Shown: positions 2,516-15,748 of the stretch, in pieces
How the letters are laid out: each line of letters starts with the position of its first letter
Numbering within the stretch: the stretch's first letter is position 1
DNA from: Mustelus asterias
Lineage: Eukaryota
Direction of reading: 5' to 3'
Assembly (NCBI RefSeq): GCF_964213995.1
Contig: NC_135809.1
Location: 97,340,001-97,404,000, forward strand
DNA length: 64,000 nt
Notes under the pieces: model-generated
Told to the model about the DNA's origin: nothing
The model's database searches: none
What the model saw: only the letters and a program-made list of their open reading frames with translations
Position numbers and translations under genes: made by a program

Positions 2516-2811
2516 TGTGGTGAACCATTGTTGGTTACCACCAGGAGTGCTGAGCCATGGTCTGGCCAGTACTATGAGTCTGTAGATATGTTACTGTTGG
2601 GGTTAGGGTTGGGCTGTTCTACCTGTTAATATAGTCCTATGGTACACCCCAGTTGGCTCCGCCTCCTGGGAGAGGTATAAAGGTCACTGCTCTGCCTGGT
2701 GACCCCTTAGTCTGGGATTGTATATTGTATATAGTAGCTCCGTTATTGTTGGCAATAAAAGCCTTTATTTCCCAGGTACATCCTGCCTCCCGTGTGATTT
2801 ATCGCGCATCA
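2516..2811 (+). repeat. 5' LTR of element 1
   Basis: Direct repeat of 6923-7218; TATAAA at 2676; AATAAA at 2754. Confidence 0.97.
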
Positions 2812-2812
2812 A

Positions 2813-2827
2813 TTTTATTGCCAACAA
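2813..2827 (+). other. Non-tRNA primer-binding position, complementary to own LTR 2746-2760
   Basis: ttttattgccaacaa is the exact reverse complement of ttgttggcaataaaa; there is no TGG (tRNA CCA complement) after the LTR. Confidence 0.8.
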
Positions 2828-2865
2828 GTAAAATTTTTTTTGAAAAAAAACAACAAAAGAAAACC

Positions 2866-5800
2866 ATGGAGCAAATGCTGAAACCCGAACGGCTTACGTT
2901 GGATCCACGTGCGGCGGGAGCATCGAACACTTTCGACCACTGGTTGAAGTGTTTCCAAGATCACCTCGACGCCTCCACAGCGGTCAACAACGACGCCGAC
3001 AGACTCCGGGTCCTCCATGCGAGGGTAAGCGACACTGTATACTTAGCGATCCGTGAGGCCCCAGACTACAAAGGGGCCCTCGAGCTTCTCAAAAAGCGAT
3101 ACAACAAACCACCGAATGAGATCCATGCTCGACATCTTCTAGCCACTCGATGGCGGCAGCCCGGCGAAACGACGGAACAGTACGTGTGTGAACTTCAGCA
3201 GCTAGCCAGAGCCTGCAACTGCAAGCCAGTGTCGGCAGCCCAGTACATGAGCGACTTAGTTCAAGATGCGTTTGTGGCGGGAATCGGCTCGTCGTACATC
3301 CGCCTTCGGTTGCTGGAGCAAGGTAACCTTGACCTCGCTAAAACCATAGAGTTAGCTGACGCTCTAGAAACGGCCTCCAAAAGTCTGGAGATGTACCCCG
3401 ACGACCGCGTGGGGACATTGTGGCAGGTGCAGCCGCAGACTCCACTTTATTCAGCGGGATCGAAAAACTGCGCGATTGCGTTTCCAGCCTCGGACCTGAC
3501 GACGGCAGCAGCTCCAGGTGGCCCGCGGTGTTACTTCTGTGGGGTGGTGAAACACCCTCGGCAGCGATGTCCAGCTAAAGCGGTATTGTGCTCCGCCTGT
3601 GGCAAGAAGGGACATTATTCCAAAGTATGCTGGACCAAACCACTCTCCAAACACAACAGTGCGGCGTGTGACTCCCCGGAGCCGGCCTCCTTGTCTTCTG
3701 CGTCTTCGAGGTCTTCCACCACGTGCGATTCCAGGACGTCGCCATTCCTAACGACGGAGTCGCAAGACACGTGCGACCTGCAGGGGCCGCAGGTTTTGGC
3801 GCCATCGACCACGTGCGACCTATGGGGGCAGCCATTTTGGTCGGCAACGACCGCGAATGACCAGCAGGGGCCGTCATCAGCCATCTCAGCTGCCTGCAGT
3901 TGCGCCCACGATCCAACGGTGGCGTCAATCATCCTGGACCAGGCCAAGCCTCACAGACTCGACAAGTCCATGATGGACATACAGGTAAACGGACGCCAGA
4001 TTTATTGTTTGTTTGACAGCGGGAGCACGGAGAGCTTCATTCACCCTGACACCGTGAAGCAGTGTGGTCTCCAGATTCGGACTGTCAAGCAGACAATTTC
4101 GATGGCGTCAAGGTCCCGGTCTGTCACTGTGCTAGGGAGCTGCGTGGTCAACCTGATGGTGCAGGGGACGGTTTACGAGAACTTCAGGCTCCTTGTGTTA
4201 CCGCACCTTTGCGCGCCGATACTCCTAGGACTAGATTTTATGGTCCACCTGAAGAGTGTAACCCTGCAGTACGATGGGCCATTCCCTCCGCTTTCAGTGG
4301 GAGATCCGCAGCCTCTAAATTGCCCAACGCGCTCCACATGTAGTCTCTCGACGCTCAGGATTACCACACCCTCCCTATTCCAGAATCTGGTACCAGGCTG
4401 CAAGCCCATCGCAACAAAGAGCAGGTGTTACAGCACTGAGGATCGGATCTTCATTCGATCTGAAGTTCAGCGGCTCCTCAAGGAAAGGATCATCCAACCT
4501 AGCGCTAGTCCTTGGAGAGCGCAAGTCGTGGTGGTTAAGAATGGGAACAAACCCCGGATGGTCATAGACTATAGTCAGACCATTAACAGATACACATAGC
4601 TGGATGTGTATCCCCTCCCGCGCATATCTGACATGGTCAATCAGATTGCGCAGTACCGGGTGTTCTCCACCATCGACTTAAAATCTGCTTACCACCAGCT
4701 CCCCATTTGCCCAGAGGACCGACAATACACGGCCTTTGAGGCGGATGGTTGCCTGTACCATTTTTTAAGGGTTCCCTTTGGTGTCACGAATGGGGTCTCG
4801 GTCTTCCAGCGTGCTATGGACCGAATGGTGGACCAGAACGGGCTGCGGGCTACCTTCCCGTACCTGGATAACGTCACCATCTGCGGCCATGACCAGCAGG
4901 ACCACGATGCCAACCTTCTTAGATTCTTACGCACTGCATCTCGCCTGAATCTGACCTACAACAGGGAGAAGTGTGTATTTCGCACGCGCCGCCTAGCTAT
5001 CCTCGGATACGTGGTGGAAAACGGGGCCCTTGGCCCTGATCCAGACCGTATGCGTCCCCTCCTCGAACTCTCCCTGCCCACTAGCATCAAAGCACTGAGA
5101 AGATGTTTAGGCTTCTTCTCATACTATGCACAGTGGGTTCCCAATTACGCGGACAAAGCCCGTCCGCTCATCAAGTCTACCTCCTTTCCCCTAACAACAG
5201 AGGCTCGCTTAGCCTTTGCAGGAATAAAAGCCGACATCGCGAAAGCCACGATGCACGCTATTGATGAGTCCATCCCCTTCCAGGTGGAGAGTGATGCATC
5301 TGATTTCGCCCTGGCCGCCACACTTAACCAGGCGGGCAGGCCCGTCGCCTTTTTCTCTCGCACCCTCCAAGGCCCCGAAATTCGGCATTCTGCGGTGGAA
5401 AAGGAGGCCCAGGCCATTGTGGAGGCAGTTTGGCATTGGAGCCATTACTTGGTGGGAAAACGGTTCACTCTGCTCACGGACCAGCGGTCCATGGCGTTCA
5501 TGTTCAACAACACGTTACGGGGTAAGATCAAGAATGATAAAATCTTGAGGTGGAGAATCGAACTCTCCACCTACAATTATGATATCATGTACCGTCCAGG
5601 GAAGCTCAACGAGCCCTTGGAAGCCCTGTCGCGTGGAACATGCGCTAGTGTGCAGGAGAATCGATTACAGGCTCTCCACAATGACCTCTGCCATCCGGGG
5701 GTCACTTGGCTCTTCCACTTCATAAAGGCCAGGAATCTACCCTACTCGGTGGAGGATGTCAGGTCCATAACCAGAAGCTGCCAGCTATGCGCGGAATGCA

Positions 5801-6859
5801 AACCGCACGTCTACCGACCTGACAGGGCACACCTCATTAAGGCCACTCGTCCTTTCGAAAGACTGAGTGTGGACTTCAAGGGCCCCCTTCCCTCGACAGA
5901 TCGGAACGTGTACTTCCTCAATGTGATTGATGAGTACTCACGATTCCCTTTTGTCATTCCCTGTTCTGATATGACCGCTGCCACGGTTATCAAGGCATTA
6001 CGGGATCTTTTCACCCTGTTCGGTTACCCCTGTTATATCCACAGCGATAGGGGCTCGTCGTTCATGAGCGATGACTTGAGGCAATACCTACTCTCATATG
6101 CGATTGCCTCTAGTAGAACCACGAGCTACAACCCAAAGGATAACGGACAGGTTGAACGAGAGAATGCTAGAATGGAAGGCTGTCTTACTGGCGTTGAGGT
6201 CTAAAGGTCTTCCAGTCTGCCGTTGGTAAGAGGTACTCCCTGATGCACTCCACTCCATACGCTCACTCCTGTGTACGGCAACCAATGCTACTCCTCATGA
6301 GAGAATGTTTTCATTCCCTAGGAAGTCTTCCTCTGGGACCTCATTACCGTCTTGGTTGACGTACTCAGGACCTGTCCTCCTGCGGCGGCATGTTAGGACC
6401 CGCAAGTCCGACCCTTTGGTTGAACAGGTCCATCTCCTCCACGCCAACCCTCAGTATGCCTATGTGGCATATCCTGACGGGCGAGAGGACACGGTCTCGA
6501 TTCGAGGTCTGGCGCCAGCAGGGGGCTTGGAAACCCCAGTCGCTCCCACACCCCCAGTTAGGGACCCCACGACCATTATCTCCCCTCCTGACACGGCGCG
6601 GGCAGTATCGGGACCACCACTTAACCCTCTTACTCCCGTGTGCAGCTTGCCTGAGTCCAGGAGATTGTCGCCACCTCGAGGCGTGCCCGAGTCCAGCGGA
6701 TTGTCACCACCTCGTGGTCTACCGGCCCGTGAGGAACTGGAGGAGTCACTGGACACCGCCTTGGAGAGAAGGTCACCGCGATTGCCTGAACCGGCGTCAT
6801 CGCCGGTGTTGAGGAGGTCACAGCGACGGTGCGGTCCCCCAAACCGTTTGAACTTATAG
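2866..6859 (+). pseudogene. gag-pol polyprotein of element 1 (single ancestral ORF, now disrupted)
   Basis: Starts MEQMLKPERL; two CCHC knuckles (CYFCGVVKHPRQRC, CSACGKKGHYSKVC); protease LFDSGS; RT IDLKSAYHQ, PFG, YLDN; RNase H ESDAS; integrase HHCC plus DFKGP/HSDRG/QVER. Lesions: TAG at 4597, frameshift near 6170, TAA at 6227. Confidence 0.93.
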
Positions 6860-6907
6860 ACAGATGAACAGTTGTTCTGTGTTTTGTACCCCGCCGGCCT
6901 TTGTTTT

Positions 6908-6922
6908 CAAAGGAGGGGTGAA
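6908..6922 (+). other. Polypurine tract of element 1
   Basis: caaaggaggggtgaa lies immediately 5' of the 3' LTR and is identical in element 2 (48971-48985). Confidence 0.85.
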
Positions 6923-7218
6923 TGTGGTGAACCATTGTTGGTTACCACCAGGAGTGCTGAGCCATGGTCTGGCCAGTACTATGAGTCTGTAGATATGTTA
7001 CAGTTGGGGTTAGGGTTGGGCTGTTCTACCTGTTAATATAGTCCTATGGTACACCCCAGTTGGCTCCGCCTCCTGGGAGAGGTATAAAGGTCACTGCTCC
7101 GCCTGGTGACCCCTTAGTCTGGGATTGTATATTGTATATAGTAGCTCCGTTATTGTTGGCAATAAAAGCCTTTATTTCCCGGGTACATCCTGCCTCCCGT
7201 GTGATTTATCACGCATCA
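6923..7218 (+). repeat. 3' LTR of element 1
   Basis: 292/296 identical to the 5' LTR by manual comparison. Confidence 0.97.
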
Positions 7219-7903
7219 TGGAGCAGAGAAGACTGAGGGGCAACCTGATCGAGGTGTACAAGATTATGAGAGAGATGGACAGAGTGGACAAGGAGTAGCT
7301 GTTCCCTTTAGTTGAAGGGTCAGTCTCGAGGGGACATAGGTTCAAGGTGAGGGGCAGGAGGTTTAGGGGGGGATGTGAGGAAAAACTTTTTTACCCAGAG
7401 GGTGGTGACACTCTGCAATGCACTGCCTGGGAAGGTGGTGGAGGCGGGTTGCCTCACATCCTTCAACAAGTATCAGGATGAGCACTTGGCACATCATTAC
7501 ATTCAGGGCTATGGGCCAAGTGCTGGCAGATGGGATTAGGTGGGAGTTCAGGTGTTTCTAATATGTCGGTGAAGACTTGATGGGCCAAAAGGCCTTGTCT
7601 AAAGTTAAAGTTAAAGTTTATTTATTAGTCACAAGTAAGGCTTACATTAACACTGTAGTGAAATTACTGTGAAATTCCTCTAGTCGCTACACACTGGCAC
7701 CTGTTTGGGTCAATGTACGTAACCAGCACGTCTTTCAAACTGTGGGAGGAAACCGGAGCACCCGGAGGAAACCCACGCAGACACGGAGAGAACATGCAAA
7801 CTCCACACAGACAGTGACCCAAGCCGAGAATCGAACCCGGGTCCCTGGCGCTGTGAGGCAGCAGTGCTTACCACTATGCTGTATGATTCTACGATTCTAT
7901 GAT
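7219..7903 (+). mobile_element. CR1 LINE 3' end, right part (tail interrupted by a SINE at 7601-7879)
   Basis: RRLRGNLIEVYKIM and SRGHRFKVRG; the (attctatg)-type terminal repeat appears at 7880-7903, after the SINE. Confidence 0.85.
7601..7879 (-). mobile_element. tRNA SINE, HE1-like head/body with Rex1-like tail (short variant)
   Basis: A/B boxes and gtgggtttcctccgggtgctccggtttcctcccacag core; tail ...cttgtgactaataaataaac(tttaac)n. Confidence 0.85.
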
Positions 7904-9859: not shown

Positions 9860-11420
9860 TTCAGTTCCGAGTTGATGAGCAGGAGCCTGAACTTCGGACA
9901 CTGTGATGCATCTGGGAGGGGTGAAATTACCTGGATACTTTGTTCTAAGAGGCAGTCACACCCCTTTGGCTTGGTACTACAGATCAGTGGCAGGAGGGTG
10001 TGGTCACAAATGAGCCAGGTATGGAGACCCAGAAAGTAGAAATGGATAAAACTGAACTCTTGCAATTGACTAACAGATTTGAGTCTCTTCCAACTTATAT
10101 GGATAAGAACAAGGACTGCAGGGGGATTAAGAAAATTGAACACGACACATGATACAGGGATCCATTCAAGTGGAGGGAGCAATATGAAATGTAGTTGCAG
10201 TATGGAACAATATAATTAGGGAGAATCGATACCATTCTCCACAGCCAGGAGCACGAGTCCCAAAGTCTGCATTGCCTGCTTGGTGCCAGGGGTAAGGACA
10301 TTGCCTCAAGGCTGGAGAGGAACTTGAAGTGGGAAGTGAAAGGTCCAGTTGGTGAGGTCCATGTGGATATCAATGATATAGGTATGACTGAGAAAGAATT
10401 CTATGAAGGGTATATGAGAGCTGGGGGCTAAATTAAAGGTAATAATCTCAAGATTACTTACTACATGAGCAAAGAGCAAATTGTCATGAGGTAGACAAGA
10501 TTAGAGAGCTGAATACATAGCTTAAAGATTGGAGTGGCAGAAATGGGTTTCAATTCATTGGGCAGTGGCAGTATTACTGGGGAAAGAAGGGGATGTACTT
10601 TGGGATGGTCTTCACTTGAACCGTGCTGGGGCAAGTTGTGTAATTAGGGCTGTAGAGAGTGCTTCTAACTAAACAGTTAGGAGATGGGGTTCACATGAAG
10701 GGAGATTTTTGAAAGTTAAAGACATGACAATAGTACAGGGTAGTGATGCGGGTAATGAAAATCAATATATGATAACAAGGGACAGAGCGTACAAACATAA
10801 GAGTGAACAGGCAAATAATTTGAGGGTACGGAGACAGAGTTGGCTAAAGTGGAATGGGAAAATAGGTTTAAAGGGAAGATGATGGAGAAACTGCCAAACA
10901 TTCAAGGAGATCATTAATTACTCTCAGCAAAGATATATTTAATTGGGAAAGAAAGATGCTGAGAAACATAAACCATTCATGGCCAACTAAGGAAAGGAAG
11001 GATGGAATCAAATTGAAATAAAATATAAAGTTTATTTGTTAGTCACATGTAAGGCTTACATTAACACTGCAATTAAGTTACTGTGAAATTCCCCCAGTCG
11101 CCAAACTCCGGCGCCTGTTCGGGTCAATGCACCTAACCAGCACGTCTTTCAAATGGAGGGAGGAAACCGGAGCACCGGAGGAAACCCATGCAGACACGGG
11201 GAGAACATGCAAACTCCACACAGTGACCCAAGTCGGGAATCAAACCCAGATCCATGGCACTGTAGATAGACAATGCTGCGAAGATTAGTGTTAGCCCAGA
11301 AGATTGAGAAAAATTTTAGAAAACAGAAAATTAAGTCAGAAAAATAACAGAGGGAGAAATTGATATCTGAAAGAAAATTAGCAAATATGATAAAACAGAC
11401 AGTAAAAGTATTGCAAAAGA
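9860..11420 (+). mobile_element. Old CR1 5' region (ORF1 SGNH-esterase remnant and ORF2 pieces)
   Basis: CLLGARGKDIASRLERNL..GPV..VHVDINDI and DGLHLNRAG resemble the CR1 ORF1 esterase blocks; heavily decayed. Confidence 0.7.
11026..11264 (-). mobile_element. tRNA SINE with Rex1-like tail (short variant)
   Basis: Same sequence and same internal deletion as 7601-7879. Confidence 0.85.
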
Positions 11421-11647
11421 AAGACTGCTCATATACCCTCAGTAGAATTCTTTCTTAGTCGTACCTTATATCATTGATACCCACATGGACCTCACCAACT
11501 GGATCTATTAAAGCATTGCATCTTGTGCTCATCAGGATTGATGCAAGAATACACAATTTCAAAGGGAGCAACAAATTACACTGCATGAGAAAAGGGTGCT
11601 GATTGGTTGGCAAGTTGACTCTGATTGGTTGGGACGTTGCTATGTGA

Positions 11648-11955
11648 GCGGCATGTTGGCACAGTGGTTAGCACTGCTGCCTCACAGCGCCAGGGACCCT
11701 GGTTCAATTCCCGGCTTGAGTCACTGTCTGTGTGGAGTCTGCACGTTCTCCCGGTGTCTGTGTGGGTTTCCTCCAAATGCTCCGGATTCCTCCCACAGTC
11801 TGAAAGATGTGCTGGTTAAGTGTACTGGTCATGCTAAATTCTTCCACAGTGCACCCGAACAGGTGCCAAAGTGTGGCGACTAGGGGATTTTCACAGTAAC
11901 TTCATTGCAGTGTTAATGTGAGCCTGCTTGTGACACTTATAAACAAACTTTAAAC
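11648..11955 (+). mobile_element. Full-length tRNA SINE with Rex1-like tail (long variant)
   Basis: tggcacagtggttagc A box, ggttcaattcc B box, conserved core, tail gcttgtgacacttataaacaaactttaaac. Confidence 0.88.
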
Positions 11956-12220: not shown

Positions 12221-13417
12221 AAGTCACTGTACCACAAGCCCATGGATAACCTCACGATGCTCCACTTCTCCAGCTTCCAACCTAAACACGTTAAAGACGC
12301 CATCCCCTACGGACAAACCCTCCGTATACACAGGATCTGCTCAGATGAGGAGGATCACAACAGACACCTCCAGACGCTGAAAGGTGCCCTCATAAGAACA
12401 GGATATGACGCTCGACTCATCGATCGACGCGCCACAGCGAAAAACTGCACCGACCTCCTCAGAAGACAAACACGGGACATGGCGGACAGAGTACCCTTCG
12501 TCGTCCAGTACTTCCCCAGAGCCGAGAAGCTACGACATCTTCTCCGGAGCCTTCATTGATGAAGACGAACATCTCGCCAAGGCCATCCCCACACCCGCAC
12601 GTCTTGCCTTCAAACAACCGCACAACTCAAACAGACCATTGTCCGGAGCAAACTACCCAGCCTTCAGGAGAACAGTGACCACGACACCACACAACTCTGC
12701 CACAGCAACCCCTGCAAGACGTGCCGGATCATCGACACGGATGCCATCATCTCATGTGAGAACACCATCCACCAGGTACACGGTACATACACTTGCAACT
12801 CGGCCAACGTTGTCTACCTGATACGCTGCAGAAAAGGATGTCCCAAGGCATGGTACGTTGGGGAGATCATGCAGACGCTACAACAACGGATGAATGAACA
12901 CCGCTCGACAATCATCAGGCAACAGTGTTCTCTTTCTGTTGGGGAACACTTCAGCGGTCACGGGCATTCGGCCTCTGATCTTCGGGTAAGCGTTCTCCAA
13001 GGCCTTCATGACACATGACAATGCAGAGTCGCTGAGCAGAGACTGATAGCCAAGTTCCGTACACATGAGGACGGCCTCAACTGGAATCTTGGGTTCATGT
13101 CACACTATTCGTAACCCCCACGACTTGCCTGGGCTTGCAAAATCTCACTAACTGTCCTGGCTGGAGACAATAGACATCTCTTTAACCTGTGCTTAACCCT
13201 CTCTCCACTCACATTGTCTGTACCTTTAAGACTTGATTACCTGTAAAGACTCGCATTCCAACCATTATTTCATAAATTGAGCTTGTGTCTTTATATGCCC
13301 TGTTTGTGAACAGAACTCCCAGTTACCTGATGAAGGAGCAGCGCTCCGAAAGCTAGTGGCTTGTGCTACCAAATAAACCTGTTGGACTTTAACCTGGTGT
13401 TGTGAGACTTCTTACAG
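12221..13417 (+). mobile_element. Younger Penelope-like element, 5'-truncated (RT thumb, GIY-YIG endonuclease, pLTR)
   Basis: SLYHKPMD..HFSSFQPKHVKDAIPYGQTLRIHRICSDEED; TCNSANVVYLIRCRKGCPKAWYVGE..QRMNEHR; 3' end with hammerhead motif and aataaa. Confidence 0.9.
13323..13359 (+). ncRNA. Minimal type I hammerhead ribozyme in PLE terminal repeat
   Basis: ttac-CTGATGA-a-ggagc-agc-gctcc-GAA-AGCT-A-gtgg: catalytic boxes, 5-bp stem II, palindromic stem III. Confidence 0.75.
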
Positions 13418-14171: not shown

Positions 14172-14444
14172 ATAAAGTTTATTAGTGTCATGAGTAGGCT
14201 TACATTAACGCTGCAATGAAATTACTGTGAAAATCCCCTAGTCACCACACACCAGCACCTGTTCGGGTACACTGAGGGAGAATTTAGCATGGTCAATGCA
14301 CGCAACCAGCATGTCCTTCCAACTGTGGGAGGAAACCAGAGCCCCCAGAGGAAACCTATGCAGAGTCCTCACAGTCACCCAAGCCAGGAATTGAACTTGG
14401 GTCCCTGGAGTTGTGACACAGCAGTACTAACCACTGCGCCACCG
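14172..14444 (-). mobile_element. tRNA SINE with Rex1-like tail (long variant)
   Basis: Reverse complement matches 11648-11955. Confidence 0.85.
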
Positions 14445-15294: not shown

Positions 15295-15439
15295 TACATC
15301 TCCAGTTCGTCATTTTTCAGATTTAACTTTATCTGCGGATTTATTAACCCAGGAATAAGGATGAGAAATACATCCCGTCATGTAATGCTGTATTACATTC
15401 TCAGACTATGTCAAGATATTTTACAACTTTTGAACTACA

Positions 15440-15748
15440 GGGTGGCACGGTGGCACAGTGGTTAGCATTGCTGCCTCACAGCGCCAGGGATCCGGGTTCA
15501 ATTCCGGACTGGGGTCACTGTCTGTGTAGAGTTTGCACATTCTCCCAGTGTCTGCGTGAGTTTCCTCCGGGTGCTCCAGGGTTTCCTCCTACAGTCCAAA
15601 GATGTGCGGGTTAGGTTGATTGGCCATGCTAAATTGACCCTTAGTATCAGGGGGATTACATGGGATTATGGGGCTAGGGCCTAGGTGTCAGTGCAGACTC
15701 AATGGGCTGAATGGCCTCCTTCATCACTGTAGGGATTCTATGATTATG
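15440..15748 (+). mobile_element. HE1-like SINE (CR1-type tail)
   Basis: tRNA head, conserved core, ...tgggctgaatggcctcct...gggattctatgatt end. Confidence 0.88.

Follow-up and report, generated by a model that had tools for sequence, protein, structure and literature searches.

The stretch of DNA analysed here (64,000 nucleotides from the shark Mustelus asterias, hereafter the window) contains a complete LTR retrotransposon at positions 2516-7218, flanked by a 5-bp target site duplication (TSD). Its parts, in window coordinates, are the following.

2511-2515, no strand: left TSD, TGGAG
2516-2811, forward strand: 5' LTR of 296 bp, TG...CA, with 4 differences from the 3' LTR across the 294 bp compared
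2656-2683, forward strand: GC-box-like motif and TATA box (TATAAAGG, 2676-2683), putative promoter
2707-2714, forward strand: initiator-like TTAGTCTG (TCAGT in most subfamilies), with a start predicted from the motif at about A2709
2746-2760, forward strand: pairing strand TTGTTGGCAATAAAA, predicted 3' end of a self-primer, with AATAAA at 2754-2759
between 2759 and 2760 (range 2757-2761), forward strand: predicted cut, inside the pairing strand
2761-2811, forward strand: remainder of R plus U5, template for a predicted minus strong-stop DNA of ~52 nt
about 2779-2780, forward strand: possible poly(A) site at CA, followed by a GT-rich stretch
2812, forward strand: unpaired spacer A, the same in every inspected shark and metagenome junction
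2813-2827, forward strand: primer-binding site, complement of the element's own 2746-2760, without a tRNA-type TGG
2866-4596, forward strand: Gag (two CCHC knuckles), protease and the start of RT, followed in the window copy by a stop codon at 4597-4599
4600-6859, forward strand: RT (YLDN motif), RNase H and an integrase without chromodomain
6909-6922, forward strand: polypurine tract, then AA ahead of the LTR
6923-7218, forward strand: 3' LTR, with a second copy of the pairing strand at 7153-7167
7219-7223, no strand: right TSD, TGGAG

The domain order gag-PR-RT-RH-IN without env is that of Ty3/gypsy LTR retrotransposons, and Ty3 Gag-Pol was the top PDB match of the profile. The window copy itself is broken: two stops, at 4597-4599 and 6227-6229, interrupt it together with a frameshift near 6170. 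Neither a chromodomain nor SH3_Tf2-1 was detected at the integrase C-terminus of the window copy and six intact relatives (E 0.01), and PF00385 was not listed for any of 120 homologues. Two CCHC knuckles were present in all seven Gag proteins examined, and the catalytic residues of RNase H are retained in 41-42 of 42 homologues. The closest named proteins (76-82%) belong to rays and catsharks, while named homologues as a whole come from sharks and rays, corals, a nematode, a trematode and a butterfly; viral contigs searched for relatives yielded none. One homologue, P0010 (66% identical), is labelled 'Rhizobiales bacterium' MAG and is probably animal DNA binned into a bacterial assembly. The RT motif (window 4861-4872) reads YxDN instead of YxDD in 81 of the 107 homologues in which it was located. 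The same change of YxDD to Asn blocks Ty1 transposition; YxDN also occurs in a shark family that is very young, its copies being nearly identical and its LTRs identical, and the Asn form therefore seems, as far as such sequences tell, to be active. A literature search for YLDN/YXDN in this context returned no paper. Elsewhere in the window, positions 1551-1958 are the decayed remains of an integrase end from a different and older Gypsy family, which has numerous degraded relatives in this genome, and a dispersed SINE-like repeat occurs in both orientations (7602-7879, 11016-11263, 11645-11944, 14177-14414 and 15439-15645). An ORF fragment at 12563-13018 resembles the endonuclease end of GIY-YIG/Penelope elements.

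The initial annotation had placed the end of the 5' LTR at 2811, followed by a 1-nt spacer and, where a TGG would be expected, by a perfect 15-nt reverse complement of a stretch of the LTR. All of this was borne out: the LTR ends in CA, the spacer is A 2812, the primer site starts with TTTT and not with TGG, and 2746-2760 and 2813-2827 form an exact inverted repeat of 15 nt, its arms lying 52 nt apart. The copy in the 3' LTR (7153-7167) is equally complementary to the primer site, and the TATA box at 2676 (TATAAAGG) and the 5-bp TSD (TGGAG on both sides) were found as claimed. Since the longest run among 2000 shuffled LTRs was 8 nt, the match of 15 nt is not due to chance. The helix is present in both the MFE and the centroid fold of 2700-2870 (z -3.17). 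Behind the primer site lies a T-run/A-run hairpin (2829-2851), the length of which differs between copies.

We collected further copies via DNA and protein similarity plus an intact junction, hence not at random, which gave 134 de-duplicated 5' LTR junctions, each with a recognisable LTR start, junction and gag start. The complementarity that the initial annotation had proposed to follow through genomic copies and relatives was perfect in 119 of these 134 junctions and, as described below, is kept in nine distant families. In all 119 perfect copies the run is exactly 15 nt, it is represented by 11 different sequences, and the pairing strand ends 48-54 nt before the LTR end. The imperfect rows include one cut-off locus and one deletion, and G-U accounts for 2 of the 27 non-Watson-Crick cells across the 134 junctions. 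When 17 subfamily representatives were aligned, 98.4% of cells were paired, with double changes at 11 of 15 pairs (50 cells), no one-sided changes and no G-U pair. None of 500 shuffles, a procedure that ignores relatedness, reached the observed pairing in this alignment, and slid controls gave 41-51%. RNAalifold found the 2746-2760/2813-2827 helix from the same 17 representatives and returned no second conserved helix comparable to the additional structure of Tf1. As selection on a helix tolerates G-U, the lack of G-U pairs together with the sharp 15-nt edge points to templated copying, as with a tRNA site.

In one copy group three alleles of the 15-mer segregate on a common background and the primer site tracks the allele, so that the primer-site and LTR alleles are concordant in 74 of 77 copies (r2 0.85), and three U5 markers lying between the two strands reach an r2 with the primer site of only 0.41-0.49. 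The allele-mismatched elements are L119 and L174, in which both LTRs carry one allele and the primer site another, and L248, in which the 5' LTR alone deviates. Because the haplotypes seem to be nested and allele exchange within LTR pairs is patchy, we left these three elements unused for choosing between models. Comparing the linkage of the 15-mer to markers on its upstream and its downstream side did not place the first strand jump. The two LTRs of single elements (L113, L117, L119, L261-L271) often differ at subfamily-marking positions, which suggests frequent gene conversion, two-template synthesis or errors of assembly polishing, and such differences affect LTR dating.

A host tRNA, a tRNA fragment or another host RNA might prime the element, the match to the LTR being incidental. 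This idea is already largely refuted by the covariation, given that a single genome has at least 11 different primer sites, every one of which matches the LTR it belongs to. A second abundant Gypsy lineage of the same genome (L151-L170, 16 of 20 loci; PNMA-type Gag, mostly 4-bp TSD) served as a control. Its TGG site matches tRNA-Thr(AGT) over 14-18 nt in six of six delimited copies, and its self-complementary run is only 5-6 nt. The comparison with host tRNAs for which the initial annotation had called gave, for 11 primer sites of the self-pairing lineage, a longest run of 8 nt, against a tRNA set of 51 sequences with 11 anticodons only, a size that leaves a host RNA some room. A TGG 0-5 nt from the LTR end combined with a match to a tRNA 3' end was thus a property of the control lineage and not of the self-pairing one. 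The element's own site starts with TTTT, and we regard a host primer as extremely improbable. Four loci (L161, L162, L163 and L169), which came from the integrase search, represent a retrovirus-like element with a YVDD motif and an extra ORF behind pol.

The pairing extends to distant relatives. A metagenome scan yielded 80 loci at 39-64% identity; among the 41 loci scanned for the signature it was in place in 12, one had a chance match and 28 had none, the latter mostly because an intact 5' LTR junction is missing. Eight of the 11 metagenome loci with a delimited 5' LTR have a perfect run of 11-15 bp; as to the rest, L086 pairs over 14/14 via its 3' LTR, L106 shows 13 plus one mismatch and L059 is decayed. 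Nine distant families, comprising delimited loci plus L032, L036 and L095, retain 13-15 bp of pairing with different letters; their junctions all read CA-A-TT(T) and their pairing strands all end in TAAA. In a quick RT-RH tree, the rows of which include no named Mag, Tf1 or sushi sequences, the lineage's 48 rows cluster in a single clade (SH-aLRT 98), separate from two further Gypsy types, and self-pairing families occupy its deepest branches. Chromovirus and Mag reference sequences sought in the genome and in the protein collection gave weak or no usable matches.

That the pairing strand contains AAUAAA, as the initial annotation had stated, held for the shark copies, in which the hexamer is only AATAAA or ATTAAA (L138, L150), but not as a feature of the lineage, since among the nine distant families ATTAAA is present in three and AATAAA in none; in three a canonical hexamer lies 5-26 nt downstream. 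We therefore rejected the poly(A) hexamer as a lineage-wide defining feature: six of the nine lack it in the pairing strand, and its overlap with the pairing strand is a shark feature. These data bear on the view that the helix mainly hides the 5' poly(A) signal, the primer being self-derived in trans (from the dimer partner RNA or a small RNA from LTR transcripts) or produced by a host-nuclease cut. The invariably canonical hexamer of the shark copies, the presence of the complement behind the 5' LTR only and the mismatched LTR and primer-site alleles of L119, L174 and L248 all suit this view. On the other hand, hiding a signal would tolerate G-U and needs no register with the LTR end, neither of which is seen, and six of the nine distant families have no AATAAA/ATTAAA in the pairing strand. 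We consider this reading distinctly improbable.

A TATA box lies 67-73 nt ahead of the pairing strand in 16 subfamily representatives, and a TCAGT/TTAGT initiator-like motif lies ~37 nt ahead of it in all shark subfamilies, with diverged sequence in between; a conserved TATA box 30 nt upstream of 2746 is absent from the shark subfamilies. From this conserved spacing we predict a start at about A2709, which supports, as far as promoter motifs allow, a pairing strand internal to R and ~37 nt after the start. The initial annotation's placement of the pairing strand inside R, with a start near 2709, is thus upheld on the same motif grounds, and the by-product junctions of L317, L282 and L299 (see below) fall near the predicted start. 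A plain Tf1 geometry would instead have transcription start at 2746 and use the first 14-15 nt of the RNA as primer. It would account for a perfect run of exactly 15 nt in 119 of 119 perfect copies and has a precedent in Tf1, where the first 11 bases are the primer, cut by RNase H (PMC7175516). The TATA box at 67-73 nt and the initiator at ~37 nt, without a conserved TATA box at 30 nt, speak against this geometry, as do primer sites of 19-23 nt, which require primer RNA 5' of the 15-mer, and it appears unlikely to us. A contig from another organism (run X1) joins 2827 to ~3067; the part skipped has GT directly behind the primer site and AG near its end (3063-3064), which is splice-like and would remove the gag start, and this GT is not retained in most other subfamilies. 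Two contig sets of other organisms that may derive from RNA carried no information on transcript starts, ends or poly(A) sites.

The genome also contains integrated by-products of reverse transcription. Three junction probes, in which the primer site continues into further LTR complement, gave 12, 16 and 38 matches, their reversed controls gave 0, and 58 of the 66 matches were fetched and classified. Eighteen were palindromes with a 5-bp TSD, in which an LTR and an A are followed by the LTR in reverse complement, running from AATAAAA back to where U3 begins. Another five were truncated or imperfect palindromes, eight were rearranged elements and five, picked up by the loosest probe, were ordinary copies. 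Over-long primer sites were present in 12 cases: three otherwise normal elements with 21-23 nt, eight copies of one subfamily with 19 nt and one element stopping at 19. As primer sites of 19-23 nt contain extra LTR complement, copying must run from the LTR to the primer site, with a primer longer than 15 nt. The 19-nt subfamily (L300, L301, L304, L313, L315, L319, L320, L325) has spread, and in it the over-long primer copy became heritable.

The remaining ten, which include L296, were snap-back LTRs, all of them lone LTRs with perfect TSDs. Here a minus-sense U5 copy folds back, copies the U5 end and the spacer, and then continues by way of the primer site to R and U3. Six of the ten have a U5 complement that reaches 1, 1, 1, 2, 3 and 4 nt beyond U5, and once microhomology is taken into account all six are compatible with a single end point, one base past U5, that is, directly after AAUAAA. 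The other four stop early inside U5 at internal microhomologies, and none of the ten extends further, although snap-backs that reached the 15-mer could re-anneal cleanly and evade the probes, which may bias the end points. Additional products map other events: in L317 the LTR complement breaks off at the initiator, although a 7-nt microhomology lies at this point, L286 and L293 read on beyond U3, crossing the polypurine tract and entering the coding region, and in L299 the minus strand jumps at the predicted start, as if the 5' R had been copied uncut. In the palindromes L276, L277 and L298 the arms carry different subfamily alleles, which implies that two templates took part. The right arm of L282 has four mismatched bases exactly 52-55 upstream of the primer end, at the predicted start; in this single case they may be the scar of a jump at the cap.

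Several of these products could be taken to mean that the primer is the 3' end of the genomic RNA, whose R copy (7153-7167) would pair with the primer site, shed everything behind AAUAAA, tail and poly(A) included, and be extended. The RNA would thereby form a circle, and the minus strand would remain attached to U3-R. The 3' copy is as complementary as the 5' copy, the palindromes as well as L286 and L293 continue behind the primer site with R and U3, the latter two even crossing the polypurine tract, for which a 3'-end primer needs no extra jump, lone snap-back LTRs would arise directly, and both the two templates indicated by the arms of L276, L277 and L298 and the jump of L299 at the predicted start fit in. 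The lone-LTR snap-backs, the L286/L293 read-through, the palindrome arm alleles and the L299 jump at the same time count against a primer made from the 5' end. A 3'-end primer, however, would not lead one to expect minus strands that end at the 3' edge of the 5' 15-mer, as those of six of ten snap-backs do; the 5' copy, only 52 nt from the primer site, should fold first; and L317 stops near the initiator, its microhomology notwithstanding. A mis-jump of the plus strong-stop end, which can pair with whichever copy of R, accounts equally for all the palindromes and for the other products that count against a 5' primer, and we rejected palindromic integrants as proof of 3'-end priming. Priming by the 3' end is in our judgement rather unlikely, with some weight left to it; if true, it would constitute, in a widespread animal Gypsy lineage, a third mode beside tRNA priming and Tf1-type 5' priming.

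The element has no tRNA site, and we think it probable instead that the front part of its own RNA serves as primer, with its own RNase H predicted to make the cut directly behind AAUAAA. Transcription would start near 2709, and 2746-2760 pairs with 2813-2827, as the covariation demonstrates. Cleavage of the RNA at the 3' edge of AAUAAA would then produce a capped fragment of ~51 nt with its 3'-OH on the primer site. From there a minus strong-stop DNA of ~52 nt would be made and would jump to the 3' R via the stretch of ~20 nt that separates the cut from the poly(A) site. The primer would lose its unpaired front and be reduced to the 15 nt shielded by the duplex, and plus-strand synthesis would copy these 15 nt, so that the primer site is rewritten from the LTR in every cycle. 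The pairing and the direction of copying are well supported, and recopying of the primer site from the primer by plus-strand synthesis in each cycle is strongly indicated. The cut position we infer from the snap-back copies, whereas the presumed enzyme and the trimming of the primer follow the analogy with Tf1 and the conserved RNase H residues. A cut after AAUAAA would give linear DNA ends AA-TG and CA-AT, that is, two bases beyond the conserved dinucleotide on each side, and in sharks the same helix might, as a side effect, mask the poly(A) signal in the 5' LTR.

A separate and very widespread animal lineage appears to self-prime throughout, which bears on the question of whether hairpin priming is ancestral or was repeatedly invented in LTR elements. 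The genome keeps a natural record of the process, in that dated, integrase-inserted by-products place the cut within a few bases and show that the primer site is rewritten from the LTR. Given this record, short RNAs and a single enzyme suffice to put the mechanism to the test, and the idea of junction probes is applicable to any family in which self-priming is suspected. An annotation tool that requires a tRNA site will misjudge this lineage.

To our knowledge, bench proof of self-priming exists for Tf1 only, and self-priming has been deduced for chromovirus relatives and one plant Copia group; the Tf1 self-primer is reportedly not removed. In HIV-1, a hairpin of the 5' R occludes the poly(A) signal, and there too the AAUAAA of the 5' repeat lies within a helix; in the shark element, by contrast, the partner strand is outside the LTR, at the primer position and at the 5' end only, and HIV-1 is tRNA-primed. 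Mag elements are reported to use a tRNA. As described in PMC2577118 and PMC6238403, the Mag elements (A, B and C clades, MolGy3, MolGy11) and Micropia/Mdg3 likewise combine two CCHC arrays, a trait common to both groups (PMC2577118), with the lack of a chromodomain, short LTRs, a length of 4-4.8 kb and a wide animal host range; the mollusc and annelid surveys do not mention a PBS or primer. The initial annotation had called the element Mag-like on account of its two CCHC knuckles, 5-bp TSD and lack of a chromodomain; these traits stood, and the name is one of features only, as the tree holds no named Mag member. We found no report of self-priming in this lineage in the literature searched, which included PMC6238403, PMC8556966, PMC8220671, PMC11117352, PMC10886601, PMC6934838 and PMC5443660.

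Self-priming outside Tf1/sushi has been proposed before. For the TAR elements (Houba, Osr-1), Ty1/copia elements of plants that are predicted self-primers, it was likewise inferred from complementarity between LTR and primer site, so that independent origins of self-priming are already on record; these elements belong to another superfamily and kingdom, and the available text gives no cut site, covariation or by-products (PMC6317226). Hairpin priming has also been proposed as ancestral (PMC3601003). The closest parallel is provided by Tf1/Tf2 of Schizosaccharomyces pombe, Tj1, Tcn1 and the Tf1/sushi chromoviruses, which according to PMC7175516, PMC4600332 and PMC6317226 also lack a tRNA primer and have an LTR-complementary site directly behind the 5' LTR, with priming like that of Tf1 proposed for Tj1 and Tcn1 (PMC4600332). 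The Ty3/gypsy domain order and RNase H are common to both. The shark element differs from Tf1/sushi in that it has no chromodomain or SH3_Tf2-1 and two CCHC knuckles instead of the usual one, the RT motif of its lineage is mostly YxDN, and its primer ends in TAAA, which in sharks is part of the poly(A) signal; compared with Tf1, its predicted primer is internal and not cap-terminal. The initial annotation had suggested a distinct tRNA-independent mode of priming. Covariation, distant relatives, the tRNA-primed control lineage and integrated read-through products together argue for tRNA-independent self-priming, and it is the distinctness that has to be given up in part: the chemistry is probably Tf1-like, at work in another lineage, and not a wholly separate mode.
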